NCBI GenBank assembly: GCA_035529375.1
Contig: DATKWU010000009.1
Location: forward strand, 93,848 to 157,847
DNA length: 64,000 nt
Reading direction: 5' to 3'
Source: Patescibacteria group bacterium
Lineage (GTDB): Bacteria > Patescibacteriota > Microgenomatia > PFEM01 > JAHIFH01
A program made the translations under genes and the position numbers. Below, one piece after another: positions 19,853-47,596 of this stretch. The notes beneath the pieces are model-generated. The model worked only from the letters and a program-made list of their open reading frames with translations. It ran no database searches and was not told where the DNA came from. Position 1 is the first letter of the stretch, and each line of letters opens with the position of its first letter.

Positions 19853-19891
19853 GTTATAAGGTCTAGACGGGGGCAGACCGGTATGCTCAGC
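19853..19891 (+). repeat. R-repeat copy A (GTTATAAGG + TCTAGAC-GGGGGCAGACC-GGTATGCTCAGC, with an internal partial duplication)
   Basis: Matches the 23-bp family consensus GGTTCTAGACCGAYCYGCTCAGC, with an 11-bp insertion that duplicates AGACC. It lies 32 bp after the stop of the 382-aa gene. Confidence 0.7.
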
Positions 19892-19982
19892 AAAATTTAT
19901 AGAAGTTCCGATCGACCGAGGGTTCTCTTTTAAAAATTAATCAACTGAGAAAATTTCGGAATGAAAAAAGAATAATAATTCT

Positions 19983-21896
19983 ATGAAAAACCAACTAGTG
20001 ACCCTTGCAGCAATAAAAAGCTTTTATGAATCTGGTTGCGATTTCATTGACGTATTCTCTAACCTTGTATTACAAGAAATACCTACCAAGCCGATAATAA
20101 TAATAAATATACAACAAAAAGTTATTGATGAGTGGAATATTAATATTCCACTTGATGTAATAAGAACAATAGTTAAAAGACTAAAAAGAAAGTCACTTAT
20201 AGATTATAAAAATAGAGAGGAATCAATTTGGACGACGAGTGATGGTGAAACAGAGAAAATAAAGATCAAAAGCACAATAGACAGTACAAAAAGAGAAAGT
20301 CTCGCCCTAATTAAAAAATTAAAAATCTTCATTGAGAAAAAAAGTCGTAAAAAAATCAATTCCTCTAATGTTTCTCGAGCACTCGATGCATTTATTCATA
20401 AAAATTACTACAGTGTGGCATCAATATTAGCAAAAGAACAACAACCAACCTATCCACAACTCCAAATCGAAAAAATGATTATGGATTTTTTTATTAAGAC
20501 AGAGGAATCCGATCCTGAAAATTTTGAAAGACTAAAAGCCATAGTATATGGGAAAATTATTTCTTCTGTATTAGTAAGCCAAAGGAAAAATTTTGTGAAA
20601 GAGGCAAAATTTGAACCCCTTGATATTTATCTAGATACAAACATTTTATTTAGTGTTATGGGATTACATGAAGAATCTTTTAATAAACCCGCTAGAGAGT
20701 TGATAAAAATTCTAAAAAAATTAGGTTTTAATCTATTCATTTTTGGTTTTACACGAGATGAGGTTGTAGCCAAACTAAAAGATTTTATACGTGAGTATGA
20801 TAATTATTCTGAACAAATACCAGTAGACTCAATATACTACCAACTAAAACGATTAGGTTTCTCAAAACAAGACATTATTTTGAAGATTCAAAAAATTGAG
20901 GAAGAACTTAAAGCTCTTGGTATAGAAATAGATTACCAATGGGACATTGATAAATTGCTTGACGAGAGAGAAGAAAAATTACAAAAACTAGAAGAGAAAA
21001 AGTTAAAATCAGGTTACTCTATAAAACATGATATAGCAGCTATTGAGGCAATCAGACAAATACGGGGAAAGCGGGTATATTTGATTGAAAAATCTAAGGC
21101 AATATTTTTAACAGCGGATAGTAGGCTTTCTATTTTTAGCTTTAAAAACTATGATCATAAGTTAAATAGTTCTCTACCGGAGGTAATTTTTAGAACTGAA
21201 TTGACTAGCATCTTGTGGTTAAAAAATCCCGGCATAAATCCTAGTATGCCCATTCATGATCTTATAGCAGGCTATGCTAAGAATTTTCTTTTAAAAGTCT
21301 CTCTTTGGGAAAAGTTTATTGCCGAAATTAAAAGACAAAAAAAACAAGGAAAAATAAATGATGAAGACATTTCAATATTAATCTCTAGCAACGAAACAGA
21401 AAAAATTCTTTTTGATATTCAGTCTGGCGCTCAAAAAGAAAACTACATTCCATTATTAATTGATGAACAAATAAGAAAAAGAAAAAAAGAAAAAAAACTC
21501 AAAGAAAAAGAAATAGAACACCTGAAAAAGAAAGAACAAGGGATAAGACAAGAATTAAATAGCTTGAGGAAACAAATAGAAAAATATGAAAATATCAAGA
21601 AGTCAATTAGGAGTCATTGTGAAAAAAAATGGAATTTTATTCTAAATTTCCTAATTTGCTTGATTGCAATAGTAATTTCTAGATTATTGATCTTGTTTAT
21701 TTTAAAAGTTGGCTTGGGTTTATTTGAGAGCTTAACGTCTCTAACAGTATTTTTAGTCATTTTGTGGTCTACTATTTCTCTCATATCGGAAAAAGATTTC
21801 AAATTTTTAAGCTTTATGGTCTCTTTTAAAAAAAAATTAAAACAAAAACTGATTAAAAATTCTATCGATAAAAATTATAAAAAGTTTGGCTTGTAA
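19983..21896 (+). CDS. Large hypothetical protein with a PIN-like nuclease signature and a C-terminal membrane anchor
   Basis: 637 aa. The central segment LDIYLDTNILFSVMGLHEESF...FTRDEV...FLTADSRL resembles the PIN-domain acidic quartet (D, E, D, TxD). There are long Lys/Glu coiled-coils and two C-terminal TM helices (FILNFLICLIAIVISRLLILFIL, LTVFLVILWSTISLI). Confidence 0.5.
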   Translation: MKNQLVTLAAIKSFYESGCDFIDVFSNLVLQEIPTKPIIIINIQQKVIDEWNINIPLDVIRTIVKRLKRKSLIDYKNREESIWTTSDGETEKIKIKSTIDSTKRESLALIKKLKIFIEKKSRKKINSSNVSRALDAFIHKNYYSVASILAKEQQPTYPQLQIEKMIMDFFIKTEESDPENFERLKAIVYGKIISSVLVSQRKNFVKEAKFEPLDIYLDTNILFSVMGLHEESFNKPARELIKILKKLGFNLFIFGFTRDEVVAKLKDFIREYDNYSEQIPVDSIYYQLKRLGFSKQDIILKIQKIEEELKALGIEIDYQWDIDKLLDEREEKLQKLEEKKLKSGYSIKHDIAAIEAIRQIRGKRVYLIEKSKAIFLTADSRLSIFSFKNYDHKLNSSLPEVIFRTELTSILWLKNPGINPSMPIHDLIAGYAKNFLLKVSLWEKFIAEIKRQKKQGKINDEDISILISSNETEKILFDIQSGAQKENYIPLLIDEQIRKRKKEKKLKEKEIEHLKKKEQGIRQELNSLRKQIEKYENIKKSIRSHCEKKWNFILNFLICLIAIVISRLLILFILKVGLGLFESLTSLTVFLVILWSTISLISEKDFKFLSFMVSFKKKLKQKLIKNSIDKNYKKFGL

Positions 21897-21913
21897 TTTA
21901 AAAATACAGAAGC

Positions 21914-21936
21914 GGTTCTAGACCGACCTGCTCAGC
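21914..21936 (+). repeat. R-repeat copy B (GGTTCTAGACCGACCTGCTCAGC)
   Basis: Exact match to the family consensus, 18 bp after the stop of the 637-aa gene. Confidence 0.8.
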
Positions 21937-22032
21937 TAGGAAAAGCTCGATTTAACAAACTTTTCCGATTTGTAGTAGAACTTTTGACATGAGAACTAGG
22001 TCCCAAATTTTTAGTTTTTTAGAAAGGCATTG

Positions 22033-22061
22033 TTGACAAATTAAAAAGATAATGTTATAAA
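22033..22061 (+). promoter_or_regulatory. Sigma70-like promoter (TTGACA-N17-TATAAA)
   Basis: Near-consensus -35 and -10 hexamers with a 17-bp spacer, 45 bp upstream of the ORF starting at 22106. Confidence 0.45.
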
Positions 22062-22105
22062 AGTTTTACTGCTCCAAAGGCAGTTATTTTTTTAAGAGAA
22101 ATATC

Positions 22106-22537
22106 ATGTCTGAAACACTGAAACCACCCTCTCAAGAATTCAGTCTACCTAGTACAGAAGAGGTAATAGACTTAATCCATAAACTACGGGATCTAATACT
22201 AACTGACTGTAGCGTTCATTATAAACATATACGTGGTTATGGTGACGGTCAGGCTCTAGACGTTGATTTTCCTGACGGTAGCCAAAGAGAATTAGTCTGG
22301 ATAGACCGTGGAGACGAGGAGGGAATATTAGCGTGGAACGATAGGAAAAAACCTTCTGTTTTTAGTGAAAGAGATAATTATAATTTGATTCATGTTGATC
22401 CTGATAAACCTGCCGTTCAAATTGCGGGAATTAGGCCTAATAAAAGTAATCCAATTGGTTTTGCTTGGGTTAAATTTGTAGACTGGGGTGATTTTTGCAA
22501 TCTTCTTTCCCTAGCACAAAAAATTGAAGAGGCTTAA
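22106..22537 (+). CDS. Hypothetical protein
   Basis: 143 aa ORF preceded by a consensus promoter. No recognised motif. Confidence 0.5.
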   Translation: MSETLKPPSQEFSLPSTEEVIDLIHKLRDLILTDCSVHYKHIRGYGDGQALDVDFPDGSQRELVWIDRGDEEGILAWNDRKKPSVFSERDNYNLIHVDPDKPAVQIAGIRPNKSNPIGFAWVKFVDWGDFCNLLSLAQKIEEA

Positions 22538-22668
22538 CTTTTTCTTTCATTAAATATTATTATTGTTCAAAAAGTTTTTATAATTTCAGTTAAATTAACC
22601 TCAGAATAAGAAAACAAGCCTCAGAAGGTCCTTAGGAAGTACAAAAGTGTAAAAACTTCATCGATTTT

Positions 22669-22729
22669 TGATAAACTATTCTTGGAAAGATAAATTTATA
22701 AGTTCGGAAATCATCAACAAGTGCCAGCC
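22669..22729 (+). repeat. S-repeat copy 1 (TGATAAACTATTCTTGGAAAGATAAATTTATAAGTTCGGAAATCATCAACAAGTGCCAGCC)
   Basis: About 60 bp and nearly identical to the copy at 38895-38954. It ends 17 bp before the likely HIT start codon. The ORF track's TTG start at 22668 translates this repeat. Confidence 0.75.
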
Positions 22730-22745
22730 AAGAACCAGAATATTT

Positions 22746-23207
22746 ATGAAACACACAAAGAAAGATCGACCAAATTTTCTATTTGAAACTAAACATTGGA
22801 AAGTCTATTTAAATCCAGATCAGTATTATTTAGGCAGGTCTGTCGTGGTAGCAAAAAGAGATGTAGGCAGCCTTTCTGACTTAACCAAAGATGAATGGTT
22901 AGATTTTACGGAACTTATTAAAAAAATTGAAGCTACCTATAAAAAATCATTTGGCGCAACAATGTTTAACTGGACTTGTCTCATGAACAATGCATATAAG
23001 AACGATCCTCCCAACCCCCATGTTCACTGGCATCTTCTCCCCAGATATAAAAAAGCCGTAACGTTTAAAGGAATTGATTTTGGAGACAATGAATTCGGCA
23101 GTCATTATGCTCGAAAAATTGACCGGGCTGTACCAGATGAGGTTTTCAGTGAAATTGTCAAAGTAATAAAAAAATTCTCAAGACAATATAGGACCAAAAA
23201 GGCCTAG
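22746..23207 (+). CDS. HIT family hydrolase
   Basis: Histidine triad HVHWHLLPRY near the C-terminus. Start re-assigned to the ATG at 22746, because the upstream part of the listed ORF translates the S repeat. The TAG stop at 23205-23207 lies inside R-repeat copy C. Confidence 0.7.
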   Translation: MKHTKKDRPNFLFETKHWKVYLNPDQYYLGRSVVVAKRDVGSLSDLTKDEWLDFTELIKKIEATYKKSFGATMFNWTCLMNNAYKNDPPNPHVHWHLLPRYKKAVTFKGIDFGDNEFGSHYARKIDRAVPDEVFSEIVKVIKKFSRQYRTKKA

Positions 23208-23223
23208 ACCGACCTACTCAGCC
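23201..23223 (+). repeat. R-repeat copy C (GGCCTAGACCGACCTACTCAGCC)
   Basis: Family match that overlaps the HIT gene's stop codon (ccTAGacc). Confidence 0.75.
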
Positions 23224-23257
23224 AACCCCAACCACCCGTCACTTCAATAATCTTCTC

Positions 23258-23920
23258 TTAATCACAATTCTTTGACTTTTTAAAACCAGCCTTCAAAGCT
23301 TCTTTTTCAGTGCAAAACCATTGTTCCCCTAAACTTTTTTCAACAATTGTCTGTTCATATTGACGACAACCCGGGAAATGATAAATTTTATCACCTGAGT
23401 TTTTGTCAATGTTTCCTTTGATTTGGCAATCTGGGTCTTCAGGATTTTCCTTTTGGTAGCATCGGGGGCTAAAAACACCCTTCTCCTCTTCCTGGGCCAA
23501 ATGAGCGGTTGTTTTTAAAACTTCTCTTTGGGAATTTTTATCACTGGTGTAATAACCCCAGCCTTCCTTTAAAACCTCTTCATTTATAAATTGATTGCCT
23601 ACATAAACCAAGGCGATGATTCGACCCCAATTATCAACAACAGGTTCTCGAAGAATAACTCTTTTTTCCATTACTAAAGACTCAAGTTTTTCCTTAGCTT
23701 CCTGCCCACCACAAAAATCGACCTCTGGGGCGTTAAGGCCAGCCAATCTTACTCGCTGGCTCGTTTCCAAAACAAAAGTGTCTCCGTCAAGAACATTAAC
23801 CACCAATGATCCCGATTCTGATCCGGCTGTTTTTTGCCACAAGTAATAATTCAATAATAAGGAAGGAATTAAGATCAAAAAACCAAGCCAAACTCGCCAA
23901 TTCTTCACCATCTTTCTCAT
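23258..23920 (-). CDS. Thermonuclease (staphylococcal-nuclease-like), secreted
   Basis: 220 aa. N-terminal TM/signal segment, SNase motifs (DGDTF...RVRLAGLNAPE), and a C-terminal Cys-containing extension (YHFPGCRQYE...WFCTEKEALKAGF). Confidence 0.8.
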   Translation of the reverse strand: MRKMVKNWRVWLGFLILIPSLLLNYYLWQKTAGSESGSLVVNVLDGDTFVLETSQRVRLAGLNAPEVDFCGGQEAKEKLESLVMEKRVILREPVVDNWGRIIALVYVGNQFINEEVLKEGWGYYTSDKNSQREVLKTTAHLAQEEEKGVFSPRCYQKENPEDPDCQIKGNIDKNSGDKIYHFPGCRQYEQTIVEKSLGEQWFCTEKEALKAGFKKSKNCD

Positions 23921-23977
23921 AGATATCTATCTTACGTTAAAACAAAATTACTCACAATCTAGAAGACATGTTTTTAC

Positions 23978-24066
23978 TGTCTCATTTGTCTCATCTAGCT
24001 TTGAGATGGTAAACTAGGAAAGACTAAGTTATAAGGACTGAAAGATCCCAGACCAGCATTCACAAC
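23978..24066 (+). repeat. Composite T-R element, copy D (tandem TGTCTCAT-TTGTCTCAT, then GTTATAAGG, then a degenerate R: CCCAGACCAGCATTCACAAC)
   Basis: T motif at 23978-23994, GTTATAAGG at 24028-24036 and a degenerate R at 24046-24066. It lies between the 5' end of the nuclease gene and the methyltransferase start. Confidence 0.6.
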
Positions 24067-24088
24067 AAATTTAGAATTTTTCTAGAAT

Positions 24089-24718
24089 ATGACCATGAAC
24101 TACTCTAATTGGGAAAAATATTATCAGAAAACTCCTTTAGAAAAGATTCCTTGGCAAAAAACTCAAGCTAGTTTTTTCACTGAAGTAATAGAATCAGGCA
24201 AAATTAATCCCTGTTCAACCTTGGATTTAGGCTGTGGCACCGGAGCAAAATCAATTTACCTTGCCAAAAAAGGCTTTAAGGTCACCGGAGTTGATATTTC
24301 TAAAACAGCTATCGAGCATGCAAAAGCAAATGCCGAAAAGGCAAAAGTCAAAGTCGAATTTATAGTCGCCGACGTGACTGATTTGAGTTTTCTTGATGAT
24401 AAAAAATTTGACTTTGTTTTGGATTGGGCTAATCTTCACGGTATTCCTAAAAACAAACGAAAGAAGTATGTTGATGGAATTATTAGACACACCAAAAAAG
24501 GAAGTAAATTACTTTTAAGATGTTTTAGCAAGCGCGGGATTGAAAAAGAATTTACTCACCGTCCCATGGGGACAATCTATCTGTTTTCTAAGAAAGATAT
24601 TGAAGAGCTTTTCGAAAAGCATTTTAGAATTTTAGAAACTCATAAAAGCAAACCATTTGTGAGAAAAGAAAAAGAACCTCCGGCAAAGTGGCTTGATGAA
24701 TATTTAATGGAGAAATAG
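24089..24718 (+). CDS. Class I SAM-dependent methyltransferase (TPMT/TehB-like)
   Basis: 209 aa. SAM motif I LDLGCGTGAKSIYLA and post-I acidic VDIS. Confidence 0.75.
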   Translation: MTMNYSNWEKYYQKTPLEKIPWQKTQASFFTEVIESGKINPCSTLDLGCGTGAKSIYLAKKGFKVTGVDISKTAIEHAKANAEKAKVKVEFIVADVTDLSFLDDKKFDFVLDWANLHGIPKNKRKKYVDGIIRHTKKGSKLLLRCFSKRGIEKEFTHRPMGTIYLFSKKDIEELFEKHFRILETHKSKPFVRKEKEPPAKWLDEYLMEK

Positions 24719-24752
24719 AAAATTTTTAAACTTCTTTTGGTATAATTCAATT

Positions 24753-25220
24753 ATGATAACTATTCGGAAAGCAACAATTAACGATTTACCAGCTATAAAA
24801 GAATTGAATAAACAAATCTTCATAAATAATCCTAAATATGACAATGATGCTGTTGAAGACTTTGCTCATACTCCACAGGGAGAAAAGTATTTTAAAGAAG
24901 CAATCAGAAGTAAAAAAGGGTGTTTTTTAATCGCTGAAGAAAATGAACAGATGATCGGATATGCAAACGGTGAAGAAAAAGAAGCTTCATATCGCAAAAG
25001 CAAGTATTTTGAAATTGATAACTTAGGAGTGATACTTGAAAAAAAGAAACAAGGAATAGGTAAAAAGATATTAAATGCCATAACAAACTGGGCAAAGAAA
25101 AAAGGTTTTCAAAAAATATACCTCAATTGTTATGTGAAGAACGAAAAGGCTTTGAATTTTTATCGTAGTAATGGGTATTCAGAAATAGACATTTGTCTAG
25201 AAAAGAAAATTAGTGAGTGA
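24753..25220 (+). CDS. GNAT family N-acetyltransferase
   Basis: 155 aa. Acetyl-CoA-binding motif A (KKKQGIGKKILNAI...KKKGF). Confidence 0.8.
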   Translation: MITIRKATINDLPAIKELNKQIFINNPKYDNDAVEDFAHTPQGEKYFKEAIRSKKGCFLIAEENEQMIGYANGEEKEASYRKSKYFEIDNLGVILEKKKQGIGKKILNAITNWAKKKGFQKIYLNCYVKNEKALNFYRSNGYSEIDICLEKKISE

Positions 25221-25277
25221 ACCCTAACCTCCTCCACGAGGTAAGGAAGGAATTTATTTATTCTGTAATATTTCCTA

Positions 25278-25622
25278 TTATTTACCTGTTATACAACTCT
25301 CGTCAATTTCAGAAGTGCGGCAAATCAACAACTCACCATCTTCTTCAATAATGTTTCCAATAAGATCACTGCCGCATTTGCACATTTCAATATCTCTTCC
25401 TCCATGTCCATCATCACAAAATTCCTTTCTAACCTTGCCTGGTTTAAAGACGGTATCACAACCAATACAAACCCGTCGGTATCCTTGATCGAAAGCCTCT
25501 CTTAAAGTTAAACCATTTCCATCTGCTGAATTGTCTTCAAACTTGGAATCTTTTTCGCTCATTTTTAGGTAATTAAAAACTGCCCCTTCGGACAGTGAAT
25601 GTATTATAACACCTTTCTTCAA
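25278..25622 (-). CDS. Hypothetical Cys-rich small protein
   Basis: 114 aa. Several CxxC-like pairs (CIGCD, CKCGSD). Confidence 0.4.
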   Translation of the reverse strand: MKKGVIIHSLSEGAVFNYLKMSEKDSKFEDNSADGNGLTLREAFDQGYRRVCIGCDTVFKPGKVRKEFCDDGHGGRDIEMCKCGSDLIGNIIEEDGELLICRTSEIDESCITGK

Positions 25623-25652
25623 ATAAATAAATAAAATAGCTCAAGTGATTTT

Positions 25653-25725
25653 TGATAAACTAACTCGGGAATAAGATATAATATCAACTAATTTTGAGGT
25701 TCGGAAATCATCCACGAGTCCCAGC
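25653..25725 (+). repeat. S-repeat copy 2 (TGATAAAC...TATAAT...GGTTCGGAAATCATCCACGAGTCCCAGC)
   Basis: Shares the TGATAAAC head and the 27-nt GTTCGGAAATCATC-N-ACGA-N-TCCCAGC tail with the other S copies. Lies 235 bp upstream of the GH130 gene. Confidence 0.6.
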
Positions 25726-25961
25726 AAGATTGGACACAAAGCGACCGTAAACTCTCAAATAGGTCGATAACACTTGCTAAACCTCTACTTTGTTTTTAGG
25801 AGTTTCGGACCGTATCCTTGTTATTTAGGAGATTTTGTTTTTGTTATAATTTCCTTTCTAACCATAAACCGAGGCTCAACAGATTGTATTGGTCTTTTTT
25901 GATACAATGTCAGTGTCCTCATGCTCCTTTTGAAATAACGTAAGTTTAAAAGAGTTTAATA

Positions 25962-29240: not shown

Positions 29241-29313
29241 TGTCTCATTTGTCTCATTTTTTCTAAAATTAGGTTGAGTTATAAGGATAGAAAATTGCTA
29301 GACCGAGCTGCCC
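29241..29313 (+). repeat. Composite T-R element, copy E
   Basis: T at 29241-29257 (TGTCTCATTTGTCTCAT), GTTATAAGG at 29278-29286, and a degenerate R (GCTAGACCGAGCTGCCC) at 29297-29313. It lies 41 bp after the glycosyltransferase stop. Confidence 0.7.
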
Positions 29314-29370
29314 AAACACATTAAACAAATCTCAAAATTTTATACCATGTGTTTTTGATATACTCTACAT

Positions 29371-29822: not shown

Positions 29823-29888
29823 TATCTCATTCGTCTCATTTACCCTTGAGTTATAATGACATGAAGGTTCTAGACCAACCGGCTCAGC
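29823..29888 (+). repeat. Composite T-R element, copy F
   Basis: T-like TATCTCATTCGTCTCAT at 29823-29839, GTTATAATG at 29850-29858, and R (GGTTCTAGACCAACCGGCTCAGC) at 29866-29888. Confidence 0.7.
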
Positions 29889-30671: not shown

Positions 30672-30708
30672 GTTATAATAAAAAAGGCTCTAGACCAGCC
30701 CGCTTAGC
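30672..30708 (+). repeat. R-repeat copy G (GTTATAATA + GGCTCTAGACCAGCCCGCTTAGC)
   Basis: Family match (CTTAGC variant) lying between the divergent HExxH gene and the HDAC-like gene. Confidence 0.7.
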
Positions 30709-32165: not shown

Positions 32166-32203
32166 GTTATAAGGATAAAAAGAGCCTAGACTGGCCTGCT
32201 CAG
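32166..32203 (+). repeat. R-repeat copy H (GTTATAAGG + GAGCCTAGACTGGCCTGCTCAG)
   Basis: Begins 1 bp after the hydrolase stop codon. Sits between the hydrolase and the 3' end of obg. Confidence 0.7.
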
Positions 32204-32230
32204 TAACGAACCACTCGCTATCGCTCGGGT

Positions 32231-34246: not shown

Positions 34247-34290
34247 AATAAAATCTAGACTTTTTGGACTCGAATATAGGGCTAGAATGG

Positions 34291-34311
34291 GGCTAGACCG
34301 GCCTGCTCAAC
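34291..34311 (+). repeat. R-repeat copy I (GGCTAGACCGGCCTGCTCAAC, preceded by the partial duplicate GGGCTAGAATGG)
   Basis: Family match with an adjacent truncated duplicate. Sits between the small hypothetical genes and the 3' end of typA. Confidence 0.65.
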
Positions 34312-34353: not shown

Positions 34354-36152
34354 CTATTTAAGACCTTTTGCTTGGCGTTTGGCTTCATTTAAATCCAAAA
34401 TTATTTTTCTGATTCTTACTGCCTTGGGAGTAACGTCAACCAGCTCCGTATTATCAATATAATCCAGGGCGGCATCCAAATCCATAATTTTTGGTGTATT
34501 TAAATGTCTGGTAACCCCCTCACCTTTGGAACGCATATTGGATAATTGTTTTTCTTTGCAGACATTAACAGACAAATCACCCAGCCGGGAGTTTTGACCA
34601 ACTACCTGGCCTTTATAAACTTCCACATTTTGACCGATAAATAATTCTCCCTGATCCTGAACATTAGTTAAACCATAAATCCTGGTCAGACTTGACTCAT
34701 GGGCAACCAAGGAGCCATGCTCTCTTTCTTTCAAGGTGCCTTTTTGGGGTATATATTTATAAAACACGGTATTTAAAATACCTAAGCCATGGGTGTCGAT
34801 CATAAATTTAGTCCGGTAACCGAATAGTCCCTGAGTAGGAATAATAAATTCAAGATAAACGATATTGTTATTGGTTTGCATTTGTCTTATTTCGCCAAAA
34901 CGGCTGTTTAATTTTTGGATAACCGCACCAGAATATTCTTCCGGTACTTCGATAAAAACCTCATCACAAGGAATCATTTTTTGGCCGCCAATATTTTTCA
35001 CAATAACTTGCGGTTGGGAAACTTGCAAAGAAAAACCTTCACGGCGAAGGCGTTCGATAAAAATCGCCAGATGTAGTTCGCCTCTGCCGGAAACAATCCA
35101 GCCGCCTTGTGGGCTATCTTCAATACGCAAGGCCACATCATTATCCAGTTCTTTATATAATCTTTCCCTGATTTGACGGGAGGTCGTGTATAAACCTTCC
35201 CTGCCGCCAAATGGTGAAGAGTTAACTTCGAAAGTCATCTTTACTGTCGGTTCTTCTATTTGTAAAAGAGGCAGTGCTTGAGGTTTTAGAACGTCAGTAA
35301 TTGTCTCGCCGATAGTGATATCAGGAATCCCGGCAATGGCGACAATTTCTCCGGCTTGAGCCTGGGGTGTTTCCACTTGTTCCAAACCCTGAAATGTCAT
35401 TAAAGAAGTTAAACAATATTTTTTCATTATCCCTATGCGATTAATATGCATCACTTCCTGGTTAGCTTTTAGACTGCCATTATAAATTCTACCCCGGGCC
35501 ACTCGGCCTTTAAAATTATCCCGGCTAATAGAAGTAACCAGCATTTGTAAGGGTTTGCTCAAGTCAGCTTTCGGAGCAGGCACCTGTTTAATAATTTCTT
35601 CAAACAAAATCGAAATATCAGTCATTTTACTAAGATCCGGGTCCAGTCCGGCTTTACCAAATTTTGCCGATGCATAAACAATGGGAAACTCAGCCGTTTG
35701 CTCATCAACCCCTAAGTTAATAAACAAATCAAAAGTTTTGTTTAAAGCTTTACTGATATTGACATTAGATTGATCAATTTTATTGATGACCACAATAATT
35801 TTATGTTTTAACTCCAAAGCTTTTTTCAAAACAAATCTGGTTTGAGGCATGGGGCCGTCATGAGCATCAATTAACAAAAGCGAGCCGTCAGCCATTTGCA
35901 AAACCCGTTCGACTTCACCCCCGAAGTCGGCGTGTCCCGGCGTATCAATAATATTAATTTTGACACCACGCCACATAATCGAGGCATTTTTAGAAAAAAT
36001 AGTGATGCCTCGTTCGCGCTCCAATTCGTTACTGTCCATAATACAGACGGTATCGGTCATTTCTTTGCCAAGATGGGTGGCAGATTGGCGAAGTAAAGCA
36101 TCCACTAAAGTGGTTTTACCGTGATCTACATGAGCGATAATGGCTATATTGC
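34354..36152 (-). CDS. typA: Translational GTPase TypA/BipA
   Basis: The listed ORF has an implausible 58-aa N-terminal extension. The real start is likely the ATG at 36150-36152, which has a GGAG Shine-Dalgarno. 599 aa, beginning MEIRNIAIIAHVDHGKTTLVD. Confidence 0.9.
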
Positions 36153-37647: not shown

Positions 37648-37735
37648 TGTTTCATTTGTCTCATTTAGCCTCGGAATGATACAATTAGAGTGTTTAGTTA
37701 TAAGGATAGAAAGGTTCTAGACCGATCCGCTCAGC
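37648..37735 (+). repeat. Composite T-R element, copy J
   Basis: T at 37648-37664 (TGTTTCATTTGTCTCAT), GTTATAAGG at 37697-37705, and R (GGTTCTAGACCGATCCGCTCAGC) at 37713-37735. Confidence 0.75.
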
Positions 37736-38314: not shown

Positions 38315-38334
38315 AACTTAACACTGTACTAGTA

Positions 38335-38372
38335 GTTATAGGATCGGAAGGTCCTAGACCACACTGCTCAGC
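38335..38372 (+). repeat. R-repeat copy K (GTTATAGGA + GGTCCTAGACCACACTGCTCAGC)
   Basis: Family match, 21 bp after the GNAT stop. Confidence 0.7.
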
Positions 38373-38806: not shown

Positions 38807-38894
38807 ACTTGAAATTTTAATATATTATGCCCTATAAGGCAAACTAAACTTTATATTTTAAAAAATTGTAAATTATAGAAATTTAGCTGTCATT

Positions 38895-38954
38895 TGATAA
38901 ACTATTCTTGGAAAGATAAATTTATAAGTTCGGAAATCATCAACGACTCCCAGC
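38895..38954 (+). repeat. S-repeat copy 3
   Basis: Near-identical to copy 1 (TGATAAACTATTCTTGGAAAGATAAATTTATAAGTTCGGAAATCATCAACGACTCCCAGC). Lies 74 bp upstream of the gene at 39028. Confidence 0.75.
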
Positions 38955-39027
38955 TAGAAAAAGACCTATTTGTTGGGCTTTTTTGTTTGTGGTTTTGTTA
39001 AAAGGCGTGTTTTGGTAAAATAAAAAC

Positions 39028-39657: not shown

Positions 39658-39723
39658 AAATTTAAACTAGTTATAACTTCGTCCACAAGGAAAACCTAAA
39701 TCTGTAGAAATTTGATTGACTTC

Positions 39724-39784
39724 TGATAAACTAAGGCAGGATGGTCCAAGTTGATGGTTCGGAAATCATCAACGACTCCCAGCC
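39724..39784 (+). repeat. S-repeat copy 4 (TGATAAACTAAGG...GTTGATGGTTCGGAAATCATCAACGACTCCCAGCC)
   Basis: Contains a 7-bp stem GTTGATG/CATCAAC around GTTCGGAAAT. Ends 11 bp before the likely GNAT start. Confidence 0.7.
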
Positions 39785-39795
39785 AAAAAGGTTTT

Positions 39796-40293: not shown

Positions 40294-40328
40294 GTTATTA
40301 GTTCCAGTTATTATTTGTATTTAAAACG

Positions 40329-40368
40329 GTTATAAGGATAGAAAGGTTCTAGACCGATCCGCTTAGCC
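40329..40368 (+). repeat. R-repeat copy L (GTTATAAGG + GGTTCTAGACCGATCCGCTTAGCC)
   Basis: Family match, 36 bp after the GNAT stop. Confidence 0.75.
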
Positions 40369-41387: not shown

Positions 41388-41437
41388 CTTTATGGAAAGA
41401 TTACCAAAACGACTGGCCTATGTCTCTTTTTTAATAC

Positions 41438-41537
41438 TGTTTCGTTTGTCTCACTTCGACTGCGCTCAGTGTAAACTTTTTTGGTAAAATATATTCAGTT
41501 ATAAGGATAGTAAGGGCCTAGACCGGCCTGCTCAGCC
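41438..41537 (+). repeat. Composite T-R element, copy M
   Basis: T-like TGTTTCGTTTGTCTCAC at 41438-41454, GTTATAAGG at 41498-41506, and R (GGGCCTAGACCGGCCTGCTCAGCC) at 41514-41537. Confidence 0.7.
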
Positions 41538-41559
41538 AAACCCAATATAATTTCAAAAC

Positions 41560-42351
41560 TCACGCTTCTTGACTCACGATACCCCATTTTTCTAGAGTAA
41601 TCGCTTCTATTTTTTTGAAAACAATCGTTTCTATCGTTAGCCCAATGATTGCGATTAATAAAATACCAACTAAAACTTTGTCGAAGCTATATGTCCATTG
41701 AGCTGTCCAGATAAATTTTCCTAACCCTCCAGCACCGATCACAAGCATCTCCGCACCGATCACAGATCTCCAAATCGAACCAAAACCAATTCTCATAGCT
41801 GTTATGATGTTTGGGAAGGCACCTGGAATAATTACCTTAAAAATAGTTTGCCATCTATTTAGGCCCAAATTCTTAGCAACTAGTATCCAAATGGTATTAA
41901 TATTGCGTACTCCTGCTATCATGTTGTAAATCATCTTTAAGAAACTGGAGATAAATAACAAGACCCATACTGACAGCCTGGTAAAACCGAATATGATGAT
42001 GATAAATGGCAACCAAGCCAATGAAGGAATGGGATAAAGAGTAGATATAAGCGGAAAGAATATTTTTCTTATAGTCGCATTAGTTCCAATTAATATTCCA
42101 AATACAATTGAAACAACGACTGCAACTAAATAAGGGGGAACAAGATTTGACACTGTATCAATAATAATTTTTACTATCGTACCGTCTTTTATCAATTCTC
42201 TAAACGTTAGTATTACCTTCAAAGGAGATGGTAAAAACCAATTAGGCATCCAATTAAAATAAACAACAAGATTCCACAAAAAAAGTATAAAAAGGAATGG
42301 AATGGATGCTAGAAGTATTTCTTTAATTTGTCGCGGAGCTATAGATCTCAT
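41560..42351 (-). CDS. ABC transporter permease (NitT/TauT/SsuC family)
   Basis: 263 aa with six TM segments and an EAA-like loop. Confidence 0.8.
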   Translation of the reverse strand: MRSIAPRQIKEILLASIPFLFILFLWNLVVYFNWMPNWFLPSPLKVILTFRELIKDGTIVKIIIDTVSNLVPPYLVAVVVSIVFGILIGTNATIRKIFFPLISTLYPIPSLAWLPFIIIIFGFTRLSVWVLLFISSFLKMIYNMIAGVRNINTIWILVAKNLGLNRWQTIFKVIIPGAFPNIITAMRIGFGSIWRSVIGAEMLVIGAGGLGKFIWTAQWTYSFDKVLVGILLIAIIGLTIETIVFKKIEAITLEKWGIVSQEA

Positions 42352-43384
42352 TTTGAGCTGATTCTAGCAATTCTTTGAATCTCAAGTCATATAAATCATC
42401 TAGAGATAGAACACGCTCTGAGAAACCCAAGTCATAATTAATTCGCGCCATTTCTACTATAGAACTCGGGTCTTGCCAAAGGATATATCTTACTGCTTCA
42501 TCGTTTACTTGCCTCACAAACTCCTCTGGTTTTATATCCATTGCTCCGCTAGTGTTTTCTCTAATATAGTCAGTGATAATAATTGAGGAATCGTTAAGAT
42601 TATCTCTAAGATAACGATGAGCCTGAATCATTGCTCTATAGAACTTATTAACATTTTCTACATTGTTCTTTAAGAAATCGGTATTGATTGACACTGAAGA
42701 ACCAGTTGGCACTTTTTGCAGATCTTTCTCATACCAATATGGCAAAACAACAGCGCCTTGTTCCTTAGCTTTATCGACGTAAGCAGGCTCATCAATTAAG
42801 GCAGCATCTATCGCCTTCTTGTCCATGAGAGCCATGGGTAAATAGAGTTTTTCAATATCTATAAATTCAATTTTATTAATATCTACTCCTTCAAGCTCTA
42901 AAACATATATTATTCTTAATTTTTGGGAGCCAGCGGGGCCAACTGAAATCTTCTTTCCCTCTAAATCCTTAATAGTTACGATATCTGAGTCAGGACGAAC
43001 AAATAAGTGTGATGGCATATCACTCATTATAGATAATAACTTTACTGGTGCTCCTTTCTCTATTGGACCAAAAAGTCGTCGTGCTCCAGTGATAGTAATA
43101 TCTACTTGACCAGTACCAACTGCTAAGGCTCCTTCTGAAGATTGTAAATGCACTAAACTGACATCAATTCCCTGCTCACGAAAAAAACCTTTTTGATAAG
43201 CTAATATTATCGGGGTTGCATCGAGAGATTGAATGGGAAAGCCAACTATTACTTTTGGTAAAGACGCAGTTTTTTCGTCTATTTTAGGTTTGGAATAATA
43301 CCTTACCATAAACATAGTTGCTGCAATAGCAACTACCAAAATTACACTCACTGCGATTAAAATCCTTTTAAACTTTTTTGTCAT
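42323..43384 (-). CDS. ABC transporter substrate-binding protein (NMT1/SsuA-like)
   Basis: 353 aa. N-terminal TM/signal segment and a periplasmic binding fold. Confidence 0.7.
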   Translation of the reverse strand: MTKKFKRILIAVSVILVVAIAATMFMVRYYSKPKIDEKTASLPKVIVGFPIQSLDATPIILAYQKGFFREQGIDVSLVHLQSSEGALAVGTGQVDITITGARRLFGPIEKGAPVKLLSIMSDMPSHLFVRPDSDIVTIKDLEGKKISVGPAGSQKLRIIYVLELEGVDINKIEFIDIEKLYLPMALMDKKAIDAALIDEPAYVDKAKEQGAVVLPYWYEKDLQKVPTGSSVSINTDFLKNNVENVNKFYRAMIQAHRYLRDNLNDSSIIITDYIRENTSGAMDIKPEEFVRQVNDEAVRYILWQDPSSIVEMARINYDLGFSERVLSLDDLYDLRFKELLESAQNEIYSSATN

Positions 43385-43388
43385 TGGC

Positions 43389-44204
43389 TCACCTATTGCC
43401 TGCTATTATATCATTAATGTCCACTTGTGGTTCCATACGGTTTCTATCGAGGTCAAATTCCATCTGAACATCGTCTTCCACTCTCCTGAGTAATTTAGTA
43501 AACCTGGGATTAGACATATCGCGTGGACGAAGAAATTTAATCGAACAAGACTTTTTGATAGTTGTGGGTCTGGAACTCATAACATAAATTGTATCGGCCA
43601 TATATATCGCTTCATTTATACTGTGAGTAACAAATAATATAGTTTTTTGTGTCTTCTGCCATATTTTAATTAGGCTCTTTCTTAAATGTCTTCTAGTGAT
43701 AGAGTCTAAGGATGAAAATGGTTCGTCCATAAGTAATATCTCGGGATCGGTTACTAATGCTCTTGCAAAAGCTACTCGCTGTTTCATTCCCCCAGATAAC
43801 TTATGAATCGGCCAATCTTTGAATTTCAAAAGATCAACAAGATCCAAATATTTTTCAGCCAAAGCAAGTTTTTCATGTTTGTCCAAATTACTGTTAGATA
43901 AACCGAATAAGACATTTCCCAATACCGTTTTCCACGGAAAAAGCATGTGATCTTGAAACACCATAATACGATCTAGCCCAACAGAATTAACTTCTAGTCC
44001 CTTCGCTAAAATTTTACCGGATGAAGGGGATAAAAACCCTGCAATCGTGTAAAGAAGAACTGTTTTTCCACAACCGGAGGGACCGATAAAGCAAACAAAC
44101 TCTCCCTTTTTAACCTTTAAATTTATATCTTTAATAACCTTAAAGTTATTATCAAAGGTTTTACTTAAATTTCTTAATTCTAAAATGCAATCACCTGATT
44201 CCAT
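43389..44204 (-). CDS. ABC transporter ATP-binding protein (SsuB/TauB-like)
   Basis: 271 aa. Walker A GPSGCGKT, signature LSGGMKQRVAFARAL, Walker B LLMDEPFSSLD. Confidence 0.85.
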   Translation of the reverse strand: MESGDCILELRNLSKTFDNNFKVIKDINLKVKKGEFVCFIGPSGCGKTVLLYTIAGFLSPSSGKILAKGLEVNSVGLDRIMVFQDHMLFPWKTVLGNVLFGLSNSNLDKHEKLALAEKYLDLVDLLKFKDWPIHKLSGGMKQRVAFARALVTDPEILLMDEPFSSLDSITRRHLRKSLIKIWQKTQKTILFVTHSINEAIYMADTIYVMSSRPTTIKKSCSIKFLRPRDMSNPRFTKLLRRVEDDVQMEFDLDRNRMEPQVDINDIIAGNR

Positions 44205-44647
44205 AAACTGTTTGTTCCTTTCTTTAGAACTCGATTCATTTATTAATCTATACTAACAGTTACTGCTATTGTCTCATTTTCATCCTAAAGAATAAAGTTT
44301 GATGTAAAACCCCATGTCCATTCGAAGGTACTCCTTGCTTTAATGCATTAGACTAAGCAAACAGTTCGAACTTGTTTCTTTTTATGGCCAGTCATTTTTC
44401 GACCAGTTTGGAAAGATTAAAATAATACAATAGAAGCAAAACCAGAAAATACAACTGAATCACTGCTACAACAAATTAAAACATTTTAATAACCCCTTTT
44501 CCGCGCGCGATTTTAACGAAATCTATCAAGAAGATGCATTTAACATCTTTTTAGGTTAAATAGTTAGCTGGTTAAATTTTGCAACTAAACTAAAGCCTTT
44601 TACCTAAATAATTACTAGTTTAGACGCGTTTTGAAGATCCCTTTCTA

Positions 44648-46237
44648 CTAGAATTGCTTTAAGGTAAAAGTCTCTGGAAGATTGCCCCAGTTTTCAATTA
44701 TAAAAAGTATTGCTCTTGTTGACCATTGATAAGTTTTCAAAAGAAAAACGGCAACAAAGGTAAACCATAAAAAACTTAAAGCTTTCGAAAGATAAACAGG
44801 TTTTGTTAGCAACTTAATTCTGTTTTTGGCAATTTTAAAAACAAAATCTGAGATTTTAACTCTCTGTCTATAAATTCCAAAAATAATAACAAACAGGGCG
44901 ATACAAAACCGATAAAGAGCGATCTGATTTTTTTCTGGGTTAAGACTAAAGTATCCCCAATAAAGTGCCGTGGAGAATGGCAAGGTAAAAAAGACAATCA
45001 AGGAAATAATGGTTGGTGATTTTATAAATTTATATAATTCATAACCAGCCGCAATTGAAAAAAACGGAATAAAGGGAAGATAGTACCAAGGATAATTTGC
45101 TCCTCCAAAAAACAAAAGGGTTAAAAGATAACTACCGGCGGCCACAAAAACATAATTTAATTTAATTCTTTTCTTTAATTTAATAAAAGCAGTTGAGATA
45201 ATTCCCCAAAGCCAAAAACCATCCACGGGGAAGTTATTGAAATTTAATCCTTTAGTTATAACCAAAAGGTTCAGCGGTCCAAAAAACTCTCTTGAAGTCT
45301 GGCTAAAAAACAAATCATTGAAAAGCGTCGGCGAAAGCCAGAAAGCATAAACATAAAAAGAAGACCCAAGAATAACTGTCGGTGTCAGGAAATAAATAAT
45401 CTTTTTTATTTTTGCCCTGGAAGAAACCAGGATATAAAGATTAGCAATTAGCAAAAATATTCCCAGTTCCTTAACCATTAAGGCCAGGCCGCTAAAAACC
45501 CCGGCAAGAATAATAAATGCTTCCTGTTGCCTTTTTGATCTCACTTTTTGAGACAAAAATAGAAAAATTAAATTGGCCAAAGATATTGGAATTAGAATGT
45601 TTTCTAATAAAGCGAATCTTGAGGAGAGGATAAAACTAGGAGCAATTGAATAGATAATAAAAGCAAAGAAAGAAGGTAAGACTTCATTGGTTAAAAGAAA
45701 TGTTAGGATAAATATTAAAAATCCGCTTACTAATGAGATTGTTAAAGCGACAGCCCTGTAGTCTTCTGATTTAAATTGCTCAAAACTTTCATATTTTTCT
45801 TTGATTCCTAGAGAATAGATTAAACTTCCCAAAATGGGGTGATCTAAAAACGGCTGGACAAAGAGAATGTGCTCTTGCCCTTTACCCCTGTCAATTTCTT
45901 TAACAACCGAAAAAGGATAATTATATTTTTTGGCATTGATTATATTAGGGACTTGGCCGTTGACTCTTATATTGATTCCATCAAAACCAAATATTTGTTT
46001 GGTTTTTCCTGGGCTTTTTAGATAACAACCAAGATTAGACCAAGCAGTTGGAATGCCTGTTTGTCTAAATGAATAACCAGCGTGAATATAATTGAGTTCG
46101 TCATAGATATCAGTAGTTGAAGGAATGCTTTCGTAACCAATATATCTGTTAAATTTCAAATCAGACTTGGTAAAAAATATAAAAAGAAGTGCCGTTAAAA
46201 GGAAAATTTTTATAACCGCTGTTTTCTTTATAAACAT
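44648..46237 (-). CDS. GT-C superfamily membrane glycosyltransferase (PMT/ArnT-like), putative
   Basis: 529 aa with about 12 TM helices and an N-terminal loop with acidic residues. Confidence 0.5.
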   Translation of the reverse strand: MFIKKTAVIKIFLLTALLFIFFTKSDLKFNRYIGYESIPSTTDIYDELNYIHAGYSFRQTGIPTAWSNLGCYLKSPGKTKQIFGFDGINIRVNGQVPNIINAKKYNYPFSVVKEIDRGKGQEHILFVQPFLDHPILGSLIYSLGIKEKYESFEQFKSEDYRAVALTISLVSGFLIFILTFLLTNEVLPSFFAFIIYSIAPSFILSSRFALLENILIPISLANLIFLFLSQKVRSKRQQEAFIILAGVFSGLALMVKELGIFLLIANLYILVSSRAKIKKIIYFLTPTVILGSSFYVYAFWLSPTLFNDLFFSQTSREFFGPLNLLVITKGLNFNNFPVDGFWLWGIISTAFIKLKKRIKLNYVFVAAGSYLLTLLFFGGANYPWYYLPFIPFFSIAAGYELYKFIKSPTIISLIVFFTLPFSTALYWGYFSLNPEKNQIALYRFCIALFVIIFGIYRQRVKISDFVFKIAKNRIKLLTKPVYLSKALSFLWFTFVAVFLLKTYQWSTRAILFIIENWGNLPETFTLKQF

Positions 46238-46371
46238 GACAGATAATTAAACATGACAGGTAATTTTATTAATTTTCCGTGCCTTCGCCAGCTGCTAGTC
46301 CTACTTGGTGATTTCCAAACTTATGAATTTACCAATCCTGTATAATTATAACAAATTTATCAGTTCTATTT

Positions 46372-46704
46372 ATGATAAACAAATGTTCTCAGTGTGGCCT
46401 TTGCTGTTATTTATTCTTAGTGAATTTAACCGAAGAAGAATACCAGTCAGGCAAATACAAAACTCAGTTTGAGGAGTTTGGCTTGATTGATGACTTTCAC
46501 CAGGCAGCCGCGTGTGGAGCAAACATTCTCAAGCAAAAAGAAGATGGCAATTGCCTCTATCTTCAGGGAAACAAATGTTCTATTCATAGAATCAGACCCC
46601 AAGTTTGCAGAGAGTTTTTCTGTACCTCGAAGTTGAAAAAGTTCAAAAAAATGGTTAAGCAGATTGAAAAGAAACGAGCTAATCTGGAAAAGAGAAAGAA
46701 GTAA
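46372..46704 (+). CDS. YkgJ-family Fe-S/zinc-binding protein (CxxCxxCC)
   Basis: 110 aa. CSQCGLCC motif plus downstream C...C. Confidence 0.6.
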   Translation: MINKCSQCGLCCYLFLVNLTEEEYQSGKYKTQFEEFGLIDDFHQAAACGANILKQKEDGNCLYLQGNKCSIHRIRPQVCREFFCTSKLKKFKKMVKQIEKKRANLEKRKK

Positions 46705-46706
46705 AA

Positions 46707-46729
46707 GGCTCTAGACCAGCCTACTTAGC
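46707..46729 (+). repeat. R-repeat copy N (GGCTCTAGACCAGCCTACTTAGC)
   Basis: Begins 3 bp after the YkgJ TAA stop. Confidence 0.7.
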
Positions 46730-46755
46730 AGTTTTAGAATTTCGGTCTCAGATAC

Positions 46756-46953
46756 ATGTGCTATAATGAATTTATCAATAATAACAAAGAGACAATCGAC
46801 AATTTAATAGTTATTTTCTTCGAAGAAGGTGGTCGTATTGACAAATTCTACCTCCAAAAGAGAAAAAGAAACCCCTCGCTGGTTTACTTGAATGGTTGGT
46901 TTCGCGGTCGCAATATCCGTGAAGCAATATTAAGAGCGCTTGCGGACCAGTAA
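46756..46953 (+). CDS. Small hypothetical ORF
   Basis: 65 aa. Weak support. No motif. Confidence 0.25.
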   Translation: MCYNEFINNNKETIDNLIVIFFEEGGRIDKFYLQKRKRNPSLVYLNGWFRGRNIREAILRALADQ

Positions 46954-47052
46954 ACAATTTTATTCCACGCAAAATATAACTACCTTTCTAATACTTTCCA
47001 GGTAAAATTTGGCCTTTTATGGTTTTCTTTCTATAAGAAATTAGACCAGGAG

Positions 47053-47376
47053 TTAACGATAACCTCCCCCTCTTGGTCCTCGACTGTCTCTTGGACCTTC
47101 CCTTCTGTTGTCAAAACTCGGTCTTTCTTCTCTTGGTTTTGCAACATTGACAGCAATCTTTCTTCCTCCCATCTCAGTGTCATTTAACTTCTTAATAGCT
47201 TCATCTGCTTCCTCGTCGTTTTCCATATCAACAAAAGCAAATCCCTTGCTTTGACCACTATATCTGTCAGTGATTAGATCACAAGAAACAATCTTGCCAA
47301 ATTTGGAGAATATTTCTTCTATTTGGGAGCTCGTTACAGTATAAGGAAGCCCTCCAACGAATAGTTTTTTGGACAT
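47053..47376 (-). CDS. RRM-type RNA-binding protein with a Gly/Arg-rich tail
   Basis: 107 aa. RNP-2 LFVGGL, RNP-1 KGFAFVDM, and a C-terminal RGG-like tail. Confidence 0.8.
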   Translation of the reverse strand: MSKKLFVGGLPYTVTSSQIEEIFSKFGKIVSCDLITDRYSGQSKGFAFVDMENDEEADEAIKKLNDTEMGGRKIAVNVAKPREERPSFDNRREGPRDSRGPRGGGYR

Positions 47377-47562
47377 TTATTTTTCACCACCCTTCTGTTT
47401 TAAAATACTGTCTCTATCTGGCGACCAGAAAAAACCTTTGGAGGATATCTTCTTATCTGACTAGAAGAAACAGGTGTTAATATATCCCTCCTTAAGGGAT
47501 ACGTTTGTATTATAACACATTATCTTTTCAACTGCATCATTTTCTCAAATATAAGGTAATTA

Positions 47563-47596
47563 GGTTCTAGACCGACCTGTATGGTTAATTATAAGG
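47563..47596 (+). repeat. R-repeat copy O, the last one (GGTTCTAGACCGACCTG, then TTATAAGG downstream)
   Basis: Truncated R (the CTCAGC tail is replaced) with ATAAGG elements on both flanks. Lies in the intergenic region before pyrF. Confidence 0.6.

Follow-up and report, generated by a model that had tools for sequence, protein, structure and literature searches.

What does a short repeat do when it recurs, always in the same orientation, beside gene after gene of a single genomic island? The question is raised by a 64,000-nt stretch of contig DATKWU010000009.1 (assembly GCA_035529375.1; Patescibacteria, Microgenomatia), hereafter the window, in which copies of a 23-bp motif are scattered along the island at 19800-47600. 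An earlier note on this DNA had listed 15 such copies and proposed that they end integron-style gene cassettes, with a terminator, a repetitive extragenic palindromic (REP)-like element or a miniature inverted-repeat transposable element (MITE) as alternatives. The analysis described here indicates that the motif belongs to a larger element, which is not explained by any annotated family tested. We tentatively read this element, with confidence just short of even, as a cassette-junction recombination site, integron-like in layout but not an integron; it is comparative breakpoints that suggest recombination.

That the repeat is a real, directional feature of the window and not a product of chance is confirmed by its census. 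The core follows the consensus GG-YY-CTAGACC-N5-GCTCAGC (23 bp). A position weight matrix (PWM) of 25 columns, trained on 86 copies from other genomes and on no window sequence, recovered 13 strong copies (22-47 bits each) and two weak cores, at 24043 (11.3 bits) and 47562 (12.5 bits). All PWM cores lie on the plus strand in the range 19868-47562, the remaining 36 kb of the window holds none, and five mononucleotide shuffles of the window gave 0, 0, 0, 0 and 1 matches at >=8 bits. An extra plus-strand match of 9.4 bits at 35484, within the TypA/BipA gene, is taken as chance because neither a GTTATAAGG box nor a TGTCTCA doublet precedes it. The copy at 29294-29316 scores below 8 bits, yet keeps the conserved upstream modules described below, and a repeat search of the window returned a family of 11 copies. 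Most of what had been seen by eye survived: the motif or a recognisable remnant stands at 15 of the 15 listed positions; all copies are on the plus strand, with none outside the island; the open reading frame (ORF) 22668-23207 ends with the TAG at 23205-23207, which lies within the motif; and the upstream box noted at about ten copies is GTTATAAGG, exact or with one mismatch before eight and in looser versions before two more. The core at 46707 does adjoin the stop codon at 46702-46704, beginning 2 nt past the TAA. The 23-bp consensus as first written is too strict, since just five copies fall within three mismatches of it (0 expected by chance).

Arrays of the same kind occur in other genomes, whose loci are designated here by the prefix L. 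The motif loci contain 90 cores at >=14 bits, with at least eight cores in 8 kb of L013 and five each in L034, L036 and L055. In all 20 of the 20 loci with at least two cores, the array is confined to a single strand, and core spacing in these loci ranges from 72 to 6774 bp (median ~0.9 kb). A unit typically contains one ORF, the window units measuring 0.5-5 kb, and the core commonly lies 2-30 nt past a stop codon and 2-60 nt ahead of the next start; in no fewer than five cases, the TAG within the core doubles as the stop codon. Among 91 cores with both neighbours, a co-oriented gene lies upstream of 80% and downstream of 76% (++ 56, +- 17, -+ 13, -- 5). A pure 3' or 5' signal is insufficient to account for these counts, which a boundary element indifferent to gene orientation would explain. 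Within the window, the next gene after six copies is a convergent one on the minus strand, and three copies come after the 5' end of a minus-strand gene. The integron-like layout described earlier, co-oriented sites that each mostly follow a single ORF, is therefore found both here and in other genomes of the candidate phyla radiation (CPR). Accessory genes are indeed part of the cargo, but the cargo is not confined to them: Obg, TypA/BipA, FabD, an ABC transporter and a PMT-family glycosyltransferase are found between copies too. The sole recurrent neighbour family consists of GIY-YIG genes (82-115 aa nucleases; 14 ORFs in 12 of 52 loci). These neighbours were seen in L013, L017, L024, L030, L036, L037, L044-L046, L056 and L075, with none in the window, and in some cases the gene stops 9 nt short of a core or begins 2 nt beyond it.

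Evidence of cassette behaviour comes from genus-level relatives, which share 75-85% DNA identity with parts of the island. In these alignments, the core is shown to travel with its upstream gene while the downstream gene differs between genomes. An ATP-grasp gene, the intergenic module behind it and copy c10 (copies are numbered as in Table 1) align with L039 and L049 up to the last base of the core and are unrelated beyond it. Likewise, the GT738 gene with c05 matches L024 at 81% identity, the homology ending at window position 29314, close to the 3' end of the core; this GT738-core unit recurs in L024 and L043 before a different downstream gene, as does the serine hydrolase-core pair of c08 in L054. 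L017 shares the c14-c15 unit, which comprises an RRM protein and a small ORF; the common stretch begins at one core and stops within the next, and the flanks differ. Cores stand on either side of ATP-grasp in L030, in L039 and in a sister haplotype of the window, and at the position orthologous to c09, L033 carries the DUF5674/101-aa gene pair without a core. Within the window itself, c10 and c12 are 97% identical over the 39 nt from box to core and have unrelated flanks. The last copy, c15, is split: its left half occupies 47563-47578 and ACTCAGC occupies 47620-47626, with a 41-nt insert, absent from L017, between ...GACCT and ACTCAGC. This arrangement is a weak hint that the core may break between its positions 16 and 17.

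Around the core lies a modular element of which the 23-mer is the best-conserved part. Full copies, of which there are five in the window and ~27 elsewhere, start with a T-run (CTTTTTTATA), the direct doublet TGTCTCATTTGTCTCA (TGTCTCA doublet) and TTTAGCC. A variable stretch follows that contains an extended -10 (TGAGACAAT, TGATACAAT or TGGTAAAAT) and often forms a dyad with the doublet; a box (GTTATAAGG or GCTATGGGC), ~7 A-rich bases and the core complete the copy. A promoter scan picked out TTGTCT-18-TACAAT with TG before the -10 at 37656-37685 (c10), and the promoters of full copies, TTGTCT-17/19-TGnTAnAAT, are directed through the core. Because full copies combine a terminator-like T-run with an outward promoter, a unit could drive the expression of whatever unit is inserted after it.

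The main rival explains the same modules differently, as a regulatory intergenic unit (terminator, promoter and a regulator-binding site made up of the core and the TGTCTCA repeats) whose neighbouring genes would be shuffled by ordinary homologous recombination, possibly after DNA uptake, as has been proposed for the promoter/stem-loop (PeSL) cassettes of T4-type phages. Besides the succession of T-run and promoter, this explanation would accommodate the reverse-strand extended -10 (TGATATA) found at the left end of some copies, towards a divergent gene, and the TGTCTCA-N13-TGAGACA dyad that overlaps the promoter. Regulator genes also stand beside some copies (LexA-like, read from translated ORFs; ArsR-type, by Pfam annotation), most arrays are without a nearby recombinase, and the sole haplotype break, discussed below, is not at a core. 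Nevertheless, many copies are a bare core wedged between a stop codon and the next start codon; such lone cores lack the promoter module, sit in gaps of ~46 nt, and in some cases abut or overlap the upstream stop or are followed by the next start within 2-7 nt. A convergent gene faces 24% of cores. Moreover, at 23 bp the core barely reaches the length that homologous recombination requires, and still it is exactly here that homology between genomes breaks off. Conservation across CPR classes combined with patchiness is a better fit to a mobile site than to a host operator, and a regulatory unit would not explain how the element is oriented with respect to serine recombinase genes (see below). 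On balance, a primarily regulatory role is considered rather unlikely, although it deserves to be taken seriously.

If the core is a recombination site, in what form would it be recognised? The attC site of integrons is defined by an R'' box (RYYYAAC), an R' box (GTTRRRY) and an imperfect inverted repeat that folds as single-stranded DNA (PMC4889954; PMC5027507). With this definition applied, the earlier statement that the motif lacks canonical attC architecture was borne out: the element has no conserved hairpin and no R''/R' boxes, and the GTTATAAGG box 5' of the core is without a complementary partner. For a small GGYY/RRCC stem around CTAGACC, shuffled partners performed at least as well, RNAalifold, run on the 15 window copies and on 30 full elements (-0.24 kcal/mol), gave no consensus structure, and the bottom-strand DNA folds of eight window sites had z-scores of -1.4 to +0.9. 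Rfam 15 at gathering score matched tRNAs only, and a permissive scan of one full element returned sub-threshold noise. A structured RNA or attC-like hairpin was rejected on these grounds. An intrinsic terminator was rejected as well, the terminator scan having found no plus-strand site at any core and no U-tract on the gene strand after it; the two matches that overlap a core are both on the minus strand. REP elements, bacterial interspersed mosaic elements (BIMEs) and MITEs fail by definition, as there is no palindromic hairpin, there are no terminal inverted repeats and a single orientation only is seen. All three alternatives named in the earlier note are thereby set aside, for want of a hairpin with U-tract, inverted terminal repeats or mixed orientation. 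The pdif/Xer modules (28-bp dyad, 11-6-11, alternating orientation) do not fit either: the core is asymmetric, with the dyad judged by eye, and all copies are direct. A remnant of a tRNA 3' end was considered because of a loose likeness to a T-arm plus acceptor, but it has no 5' acceptor partner and a non-canonical T-loop, and the 3' end of the neighbouring tRNA-Gln (...TAGGTTCGAATCCTAGCCCCGCAGCCA) is not identical to the core. Reverse-strand coding conservation was dismissed because column counts show third codon positions among the invariant positions. With no fold, R''/R' boxes, terminal inverted repeats or U-tract, the core is best read as a double-stranded DNA site recognised by a protein.

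Some copies nonetheless carry structure outside the core. A conserved extension of ~115-140 nt follows GCTCAGC in a subset of copies and contains a hairpin with compensatory changes (GGCA...TGCC vs GATA...TATC pairs) and UUCG-type loops. The right extension at 25730-25871 is homologous to sequence after main-type cores in L015, L032 and L034, and it has no match in Rfam. Its hairpin, around GTGACCGAG (window 25730-25871; L015, L032, L034, L035), is followed by a later TTCGGACCG box, and in L032 the extension precedes a LexA-like gene. Extensions of this kind, the position of the core downstream of promoters in full copies, and the agreement between core and gene orientation in ~78% of neighbours are what an RNA-level role would predict, the core then punctuating polycistronic island transcripts, be it as a transcribed leader, as a processing site or as a terminator. 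Such a role seems very unlikely in view of the Rfam and folding results for the core, the GGYY/RRCC stem at shuffled level, the minus-strand position of the only terminator-like matches over a core with no plus-strand U-tract after it, and the 20-24% of cores that have a neighbour in the wrong orientation for a 3' or 5' RNA element.

A second plus-strand family (D5/D8/D9) lies at 22637-22732, 25621-25729, 38870-38958 and 39692-39787, each time just upstream of a plus-strand gene. Its D8 variant core ends in CCCAGC and is accompanied by a promoter-like TTGATA-17-TAAATT pair, for example at 38894-38922. With its shared layout, this family looks like a diverged sister of the main element. Gene-less tandem units of box and core, with a period of 60-72 nt, were also seen in L013 (554/626 and 1147/1206), L035 (5765/5838) and L087 (3294-3414), some of them spaced by a small hairpin (TATCTGGG...CCCTAGATA). 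Tandem units of this kind, the optional modules reminiscent of BOX or Correia elements, and the GIY-YIG genes as the only recurrent neighbour family, often abutting a core, might together point to a selfish, non-autonomous REP/BIME- or MITE-type repeat at gene ends, moved in trans, for example by GIY-YIG nucleases. That explanation is improbable, as terminal inverted repeats, a hairpin and an evident target-site duplication are all missing, no transposase was found among the Pfam-scanned ORFs (40 in the window and a handful elsewhere), and orientation within arrays is strictly single. Furthermore, the copies keep to islands, the 36 kb of the window outside this one containing 0, and flanking genes travel with the core.

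The distribution of the element was surveyed with the exact IUPAC core pattern in one genome per species (185,579 species), which returned 52 loci; ~17 matches are expected by chance, as estimated from base composition. The GC-rich matches L004, L008 and L031 look like chance, and most matches fall in Woesebacteria, Shapirobacteria, Curtissbacteria, Levybacteria, Microgenomates, WWE3 and Saccharibacteria. Altogether the element is present in ~45 metagenome-assembled genomes (MAGs) of Patescibacteria; most of the Patescibacteria matches also share the upstream modules (~60 nt before the core), and the distribution is patchy, yet spans CPR classes. MAGs labelled 'uncultured Gammaproteobacteria' carry the element as well (L007, L010, L012, L016, L021, L034, L035, L039, L040, L049, L055). 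These labels are probably wrong, given gltX-block synteny or gene homology with the window (L007, L016, L039, L049). A phage or plasmid origin was rejected on zero matches in 2.9 million IMG/VR viral contigs, a phage collection and a plasmid collection. Taken together, the distribution and the array layout support the view that the repeat is a lineage-wide cassette-bounding feature with one orientation per array.

Which enzyme might act on such a site? As the earlier note had stated, no integrase is visible in the window: Pfam (40 ORFs), phmmer with XerD and tblastn with serine recombinases revealed no recombinase there, neither an intact gene nor a remnant of the serine recombinase described next. 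No tyrosine recombinase was found by phmmer with XerD in the window or in 48 motif loci. At L009, however, a 440-aa large serine recombinase (Resolvase, Recombinase, Zn-ribbon) is encoded divergently from a full element ~165 nt away. Homologues with 64-66% identity in L075/L076 and L077 have the same arrangement, so that L009, L075 and L077 each encode a 435-441-aa protein with Resolvase and Recombinase domains and a Zn-ribbon (L077 not scanned) ~165 nt from a divergent full element. L074 is cut off at the T-run, and the element has been lost from L071. Short-read contigs break at the array heads; that of L009, for example, runs for just 80 nt beyond the core. L087 has a full element, with its core present three times in tandem, that diverges from a Phd-PIN-recombinase operon. 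The variant class of c01 in the window, 'GTAT-GCTCAGC', is that of the copies adjoining the recombinase genes in L075, L077 and L087. Around relatives of the recombinase (38-64% identity), 80 metagenome loci were fetched, and cores of >=14 bits or TGTCTCA doublets were counted as element features. Seventeen features (9 loci) are upstream of the gene and on the opposite strand; of those on the same strand, two are downstream and one is upstream, and the combination of downstream position and opposite strand does not occur. Thus 19 of 20 face away from the recombinase gene, and besides L009, L075, L077 and L087 there are further loci with an outward-facing element within 5 kb. In L153 and L156, the recombinase and the first recognised element have between one and five co-oriented genes between them. 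Such a layout is that of an integron platform with another enzyme in place of IntI. L009 contains two large serine recombinase genes (1355-2605 and 3873-5195), and in the element-adjacent subfamily the recombinase gene is accompanied by a conserved, convergently oriented ORF of 165-169 aa that matches nothing in Pfam (L075 8291-8788).

These other loci put a CPR large serine recombinase first among the candidate enzymes. In the mechanism we propose, recombination at the core or within it would build up the series of units and re-assort them, broadly in the manner of attC/attI exchange. The core would be read as duplex DNA by an enzyme other than IntI, which may belong to the CPR large serine recombinase family whose gene heads arrays in other genomes, facing away from them. 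With no recombinase in the window, its array is taken to be an orphan, which may be serviced in trans or may now be frozen.

Several observations weigh against this interpretation. First, besides the missing recombinase in the window, only one of 48 motif-bearing loci holds a serine recombinase (L009), and ~11% of the 80 recombinase loci show the element, a figure that comes without a control-family base rate. The usual substrates of large serine recombinases are two unlike sites, attP and attB, and we know of none that acts on arrays of like sites. Second, the conserved promoter and TGTCTCA repeats suggest that conservation is partly regulatory, and the housekeeping genes Obg, TypA and FabD lie between cores. 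Third, a fixed crossover point could not be derived from half-sites, as there are just two clear cases: among 75 perfect left halves, the right half is clearly missing only in c15 and in one L036 copy. Fourth, two haplotypes co-occur in the same metagenomes, and the gene order of the sister haplotype (contig L056/L066, 99.3% identical) is the same from 25872 to beyond 46162 (20 kb). Left of 25872, the sister haplotype has ArsR, a core, a second ATP-grasp gene, a core and a truncated GIY-YIG gene, and the break between the haplotypes (window 25872; L056 2501) falls inside this 3'-truncated GIY-YIG gene and not at a core. When five window proteins were looked up in other contigs, no arrangement beyond that one structural difference emerged, and four array proteins right of the break (two single-gene cassette proteins, TypA/BipA and RRM) revealed no alternative order. 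Given the identical order in haplotypes of 99.3% identity and no other arrangement, the array is not visibly dynamic at strain level. A search with the sister-haplotype ArsR did not return the identical protein, and the locus of a 94% relative, L157, has no cores.

The cassette hypothesis of the earlier note is accordingly upheld in part: bounded units, constant orientation and the non-attC nature of the site all stand, whereas no excision, circle or precise presence/absence event at a core was seen in contig comparisons. Core-bounded units do, in different genomes, stand beside different neighbours.

Among known systems, integrons and their orphan arrays (clusters of attC sites lacking integron-integrases, CALINs) offer the closest layout, with co-oriented sites after single small ORFs, sites overlapping stop codons, and cargo rich in GNATs, methyltransferases, toxin-antitoxin genes and unknown proteins. 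Some related loci even have a recombinase divergent from the array head, beside an outward promoter. The likeness probably extends to effect. Integrons, however, are defined by one tyrosine recombinase family and folded attC sites, and the element fails each of these defining tests. The present element is a conserved 23-bp duplex in place of a folded imperfect palindrome with R''/R' boxes, there is no IntI or other tyrosine recombinase, the candidate here being a large serine recombinase, many units have their own promoter, and housekeeping genes lie within the array. Staphylococcal cassette chromosomes (SCCmec), mobilised by Ccr, are similar in that direct repeats of a short att core bound tandem units and a large serine recombinase is linked, in our case at other loci. 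Some units of SCC, psi-SCC and arginine catabolic mobile element (ACME) composites are also without recombinase genes. SCC units differ in measuring 20-60 kb and lying at the rlmH 3' end, compared with 0.5-5 kb and an island beside tRNA-Gln here, and the window has no recombinase. The PeSL cassettes that Arbiol et al. are said to have described in T4-type phages in 2010 resemble full copies, though not lone cores, in that a repeated intergenic unit of terminator and promoter flanks small variable ORFs of a hyperplastic region. In contrast to PeSL, the element has a chromosomal CPR context with no phage matches, its 23-bp core has no stem-loop, and many copies are promoterless. Finally, tycheposon-like islands share the variable island adjoining a tRNA gene and the short direct repeats that punctuate cargo, but the repeat is not a copy of the tRNA-Gln 3' end and there is no tyrosine recombinase. 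No description of such arrays in CPR, nor of serine-recombinase cassette arrays, was found in the literature.

The element copies and associated features of the island are collected in Table 1.

Table 1. Copies of the repeat element, variant cores and the flanking tRNA gene in the window.
Feature	Position	Strand	Basis or remark
tRNA-Gln(CTG)	18563..18636	+	ARAGORN and Rfam; left edge of island
c01: GTTATAAGG box and variant core (GGGGGCAGACCGGTATGCTCAGC), then downstream hairpin module	19853..19891	+	PWM 22.5 bits
c02: core	21914..21936	+	Exact match to earlier consensus; PWM 43 bits
D8 variant core (…GTTCGGAAATCATCAAC…CCAGC), upstream of HIT179	22693..22732	+	Repeat families D5 and D8
c03: core, internal TAG is the stop of HIT gene 22668-23207	23200..23222	+	PWM 35 bits
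c04: TGTCTCA doublet, GTTATAAGG box, decayed core	23978..24066	+	PWM 11.3 bits
D8 variant core and ~140-nt right extension, upstream of GH130	25690..25871	+	Homology to L015, L032, L034
c05: full upstream module, decayed core, 3' of GT738 gene	29241..29316	+	Upstream modules; L024 homology
c06: short-type full element, TATAAT at box position	29823..29888	+	PWM 30 bits
c07: core	30686..30708	+	PWM 30.5 bits; repeat family
c08: box and core, 3' of serine hydrolase gene	32166..32204	+	PWM 29.7 bits
c09: core	34289..34311	+	PWM 35 bits
c10: full element (TTGTCT-18-TACAAT promoter, box, core), 3' of ATP-grasp gene	37648..37735	+	PWM 40.6 bits
c11: core	38350..38372	+	PWM 29.4 bits
D8 variant core, upstream of MT209b	38919..38958	+	Repeat search
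D8 variant core at start of GNAT180	39748..39787	+	Repeat search
c12: box and core, near-identical to c10	40329..40367	+	PWM 34 bits; 97% over 39 nt
c13: full element with inserted CTTCGACTGCGCTCAG module, 3' of FabD	41438..41536	+	PWM 47 bits
c14: core, left boundary of RRM cassette common to L017	46707..46729	+	PWM 26 bits
c15: split core, final array copy	47563..47626	+	PWM 12.5 bits; alignment with L017

The left edge of the island has features of its own. Genes at 1-18500 are nearly all on the minus strand, with a GC skew of -0.1 to -0.2, and those of the island at 19800-47600 are mostly on the plus strand, with a skew near 0; the opposite strand bias and the change in skew fit an insertion with opposite polarity. 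Between tRNA-Gln and c01 lies a 382-aa ORF (18673-19821), the C-terminal half of which is predicted to form a long helix. It was considered as a hidden recombinase, but it has no match in Pfam, NCBIfam, PHROG or PDB sequences, and an AlphaFold2 model that is unusable (predicted local distance difference test score of 41). In the relative L042, the order of Lon and YkuD is conserved and tRNA-Gln adjoins a different island. At L042 4160-5176, a tRNA-like 5' fragment lies beside YkuD, with a 298-aa ORF between the fragment and the intact tRNA-Gln, a split arrangement that suggests insertion at the tRNA gene.

To our knowledge, no well-established platform other than the integron keeps a stock of single-gene cassettes at dedicated sites. 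A more ambitious version of the recombination-site reading, which we regard as doubtful at present, is that the arrays constitute a serine-recombinase counterpart of the integron, in which a CPR-specific large serine recombinase would capture, stockpile and reshuffle cassettes at a 23-bp duplex site; each cassette would come with an outward promoter of its own, and the array in the window would be an orphan. Even if the regulatory explanation were correct, the element would provide a previously unannotated marker of variable islands across CPR classes that can be found with a simple PWM. If the serine-recombinase counterpart is real, it might yield a compact serine recombinase with a defined duplex site of 23-40 bp, and the way in which reduced genomes gain accessory genes would become more accessible to study. 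Cassette platforms would then have evolved more than once, with a second, mechanistically unrelated solution in the ultra-small, host-dependent Patescibacteria.

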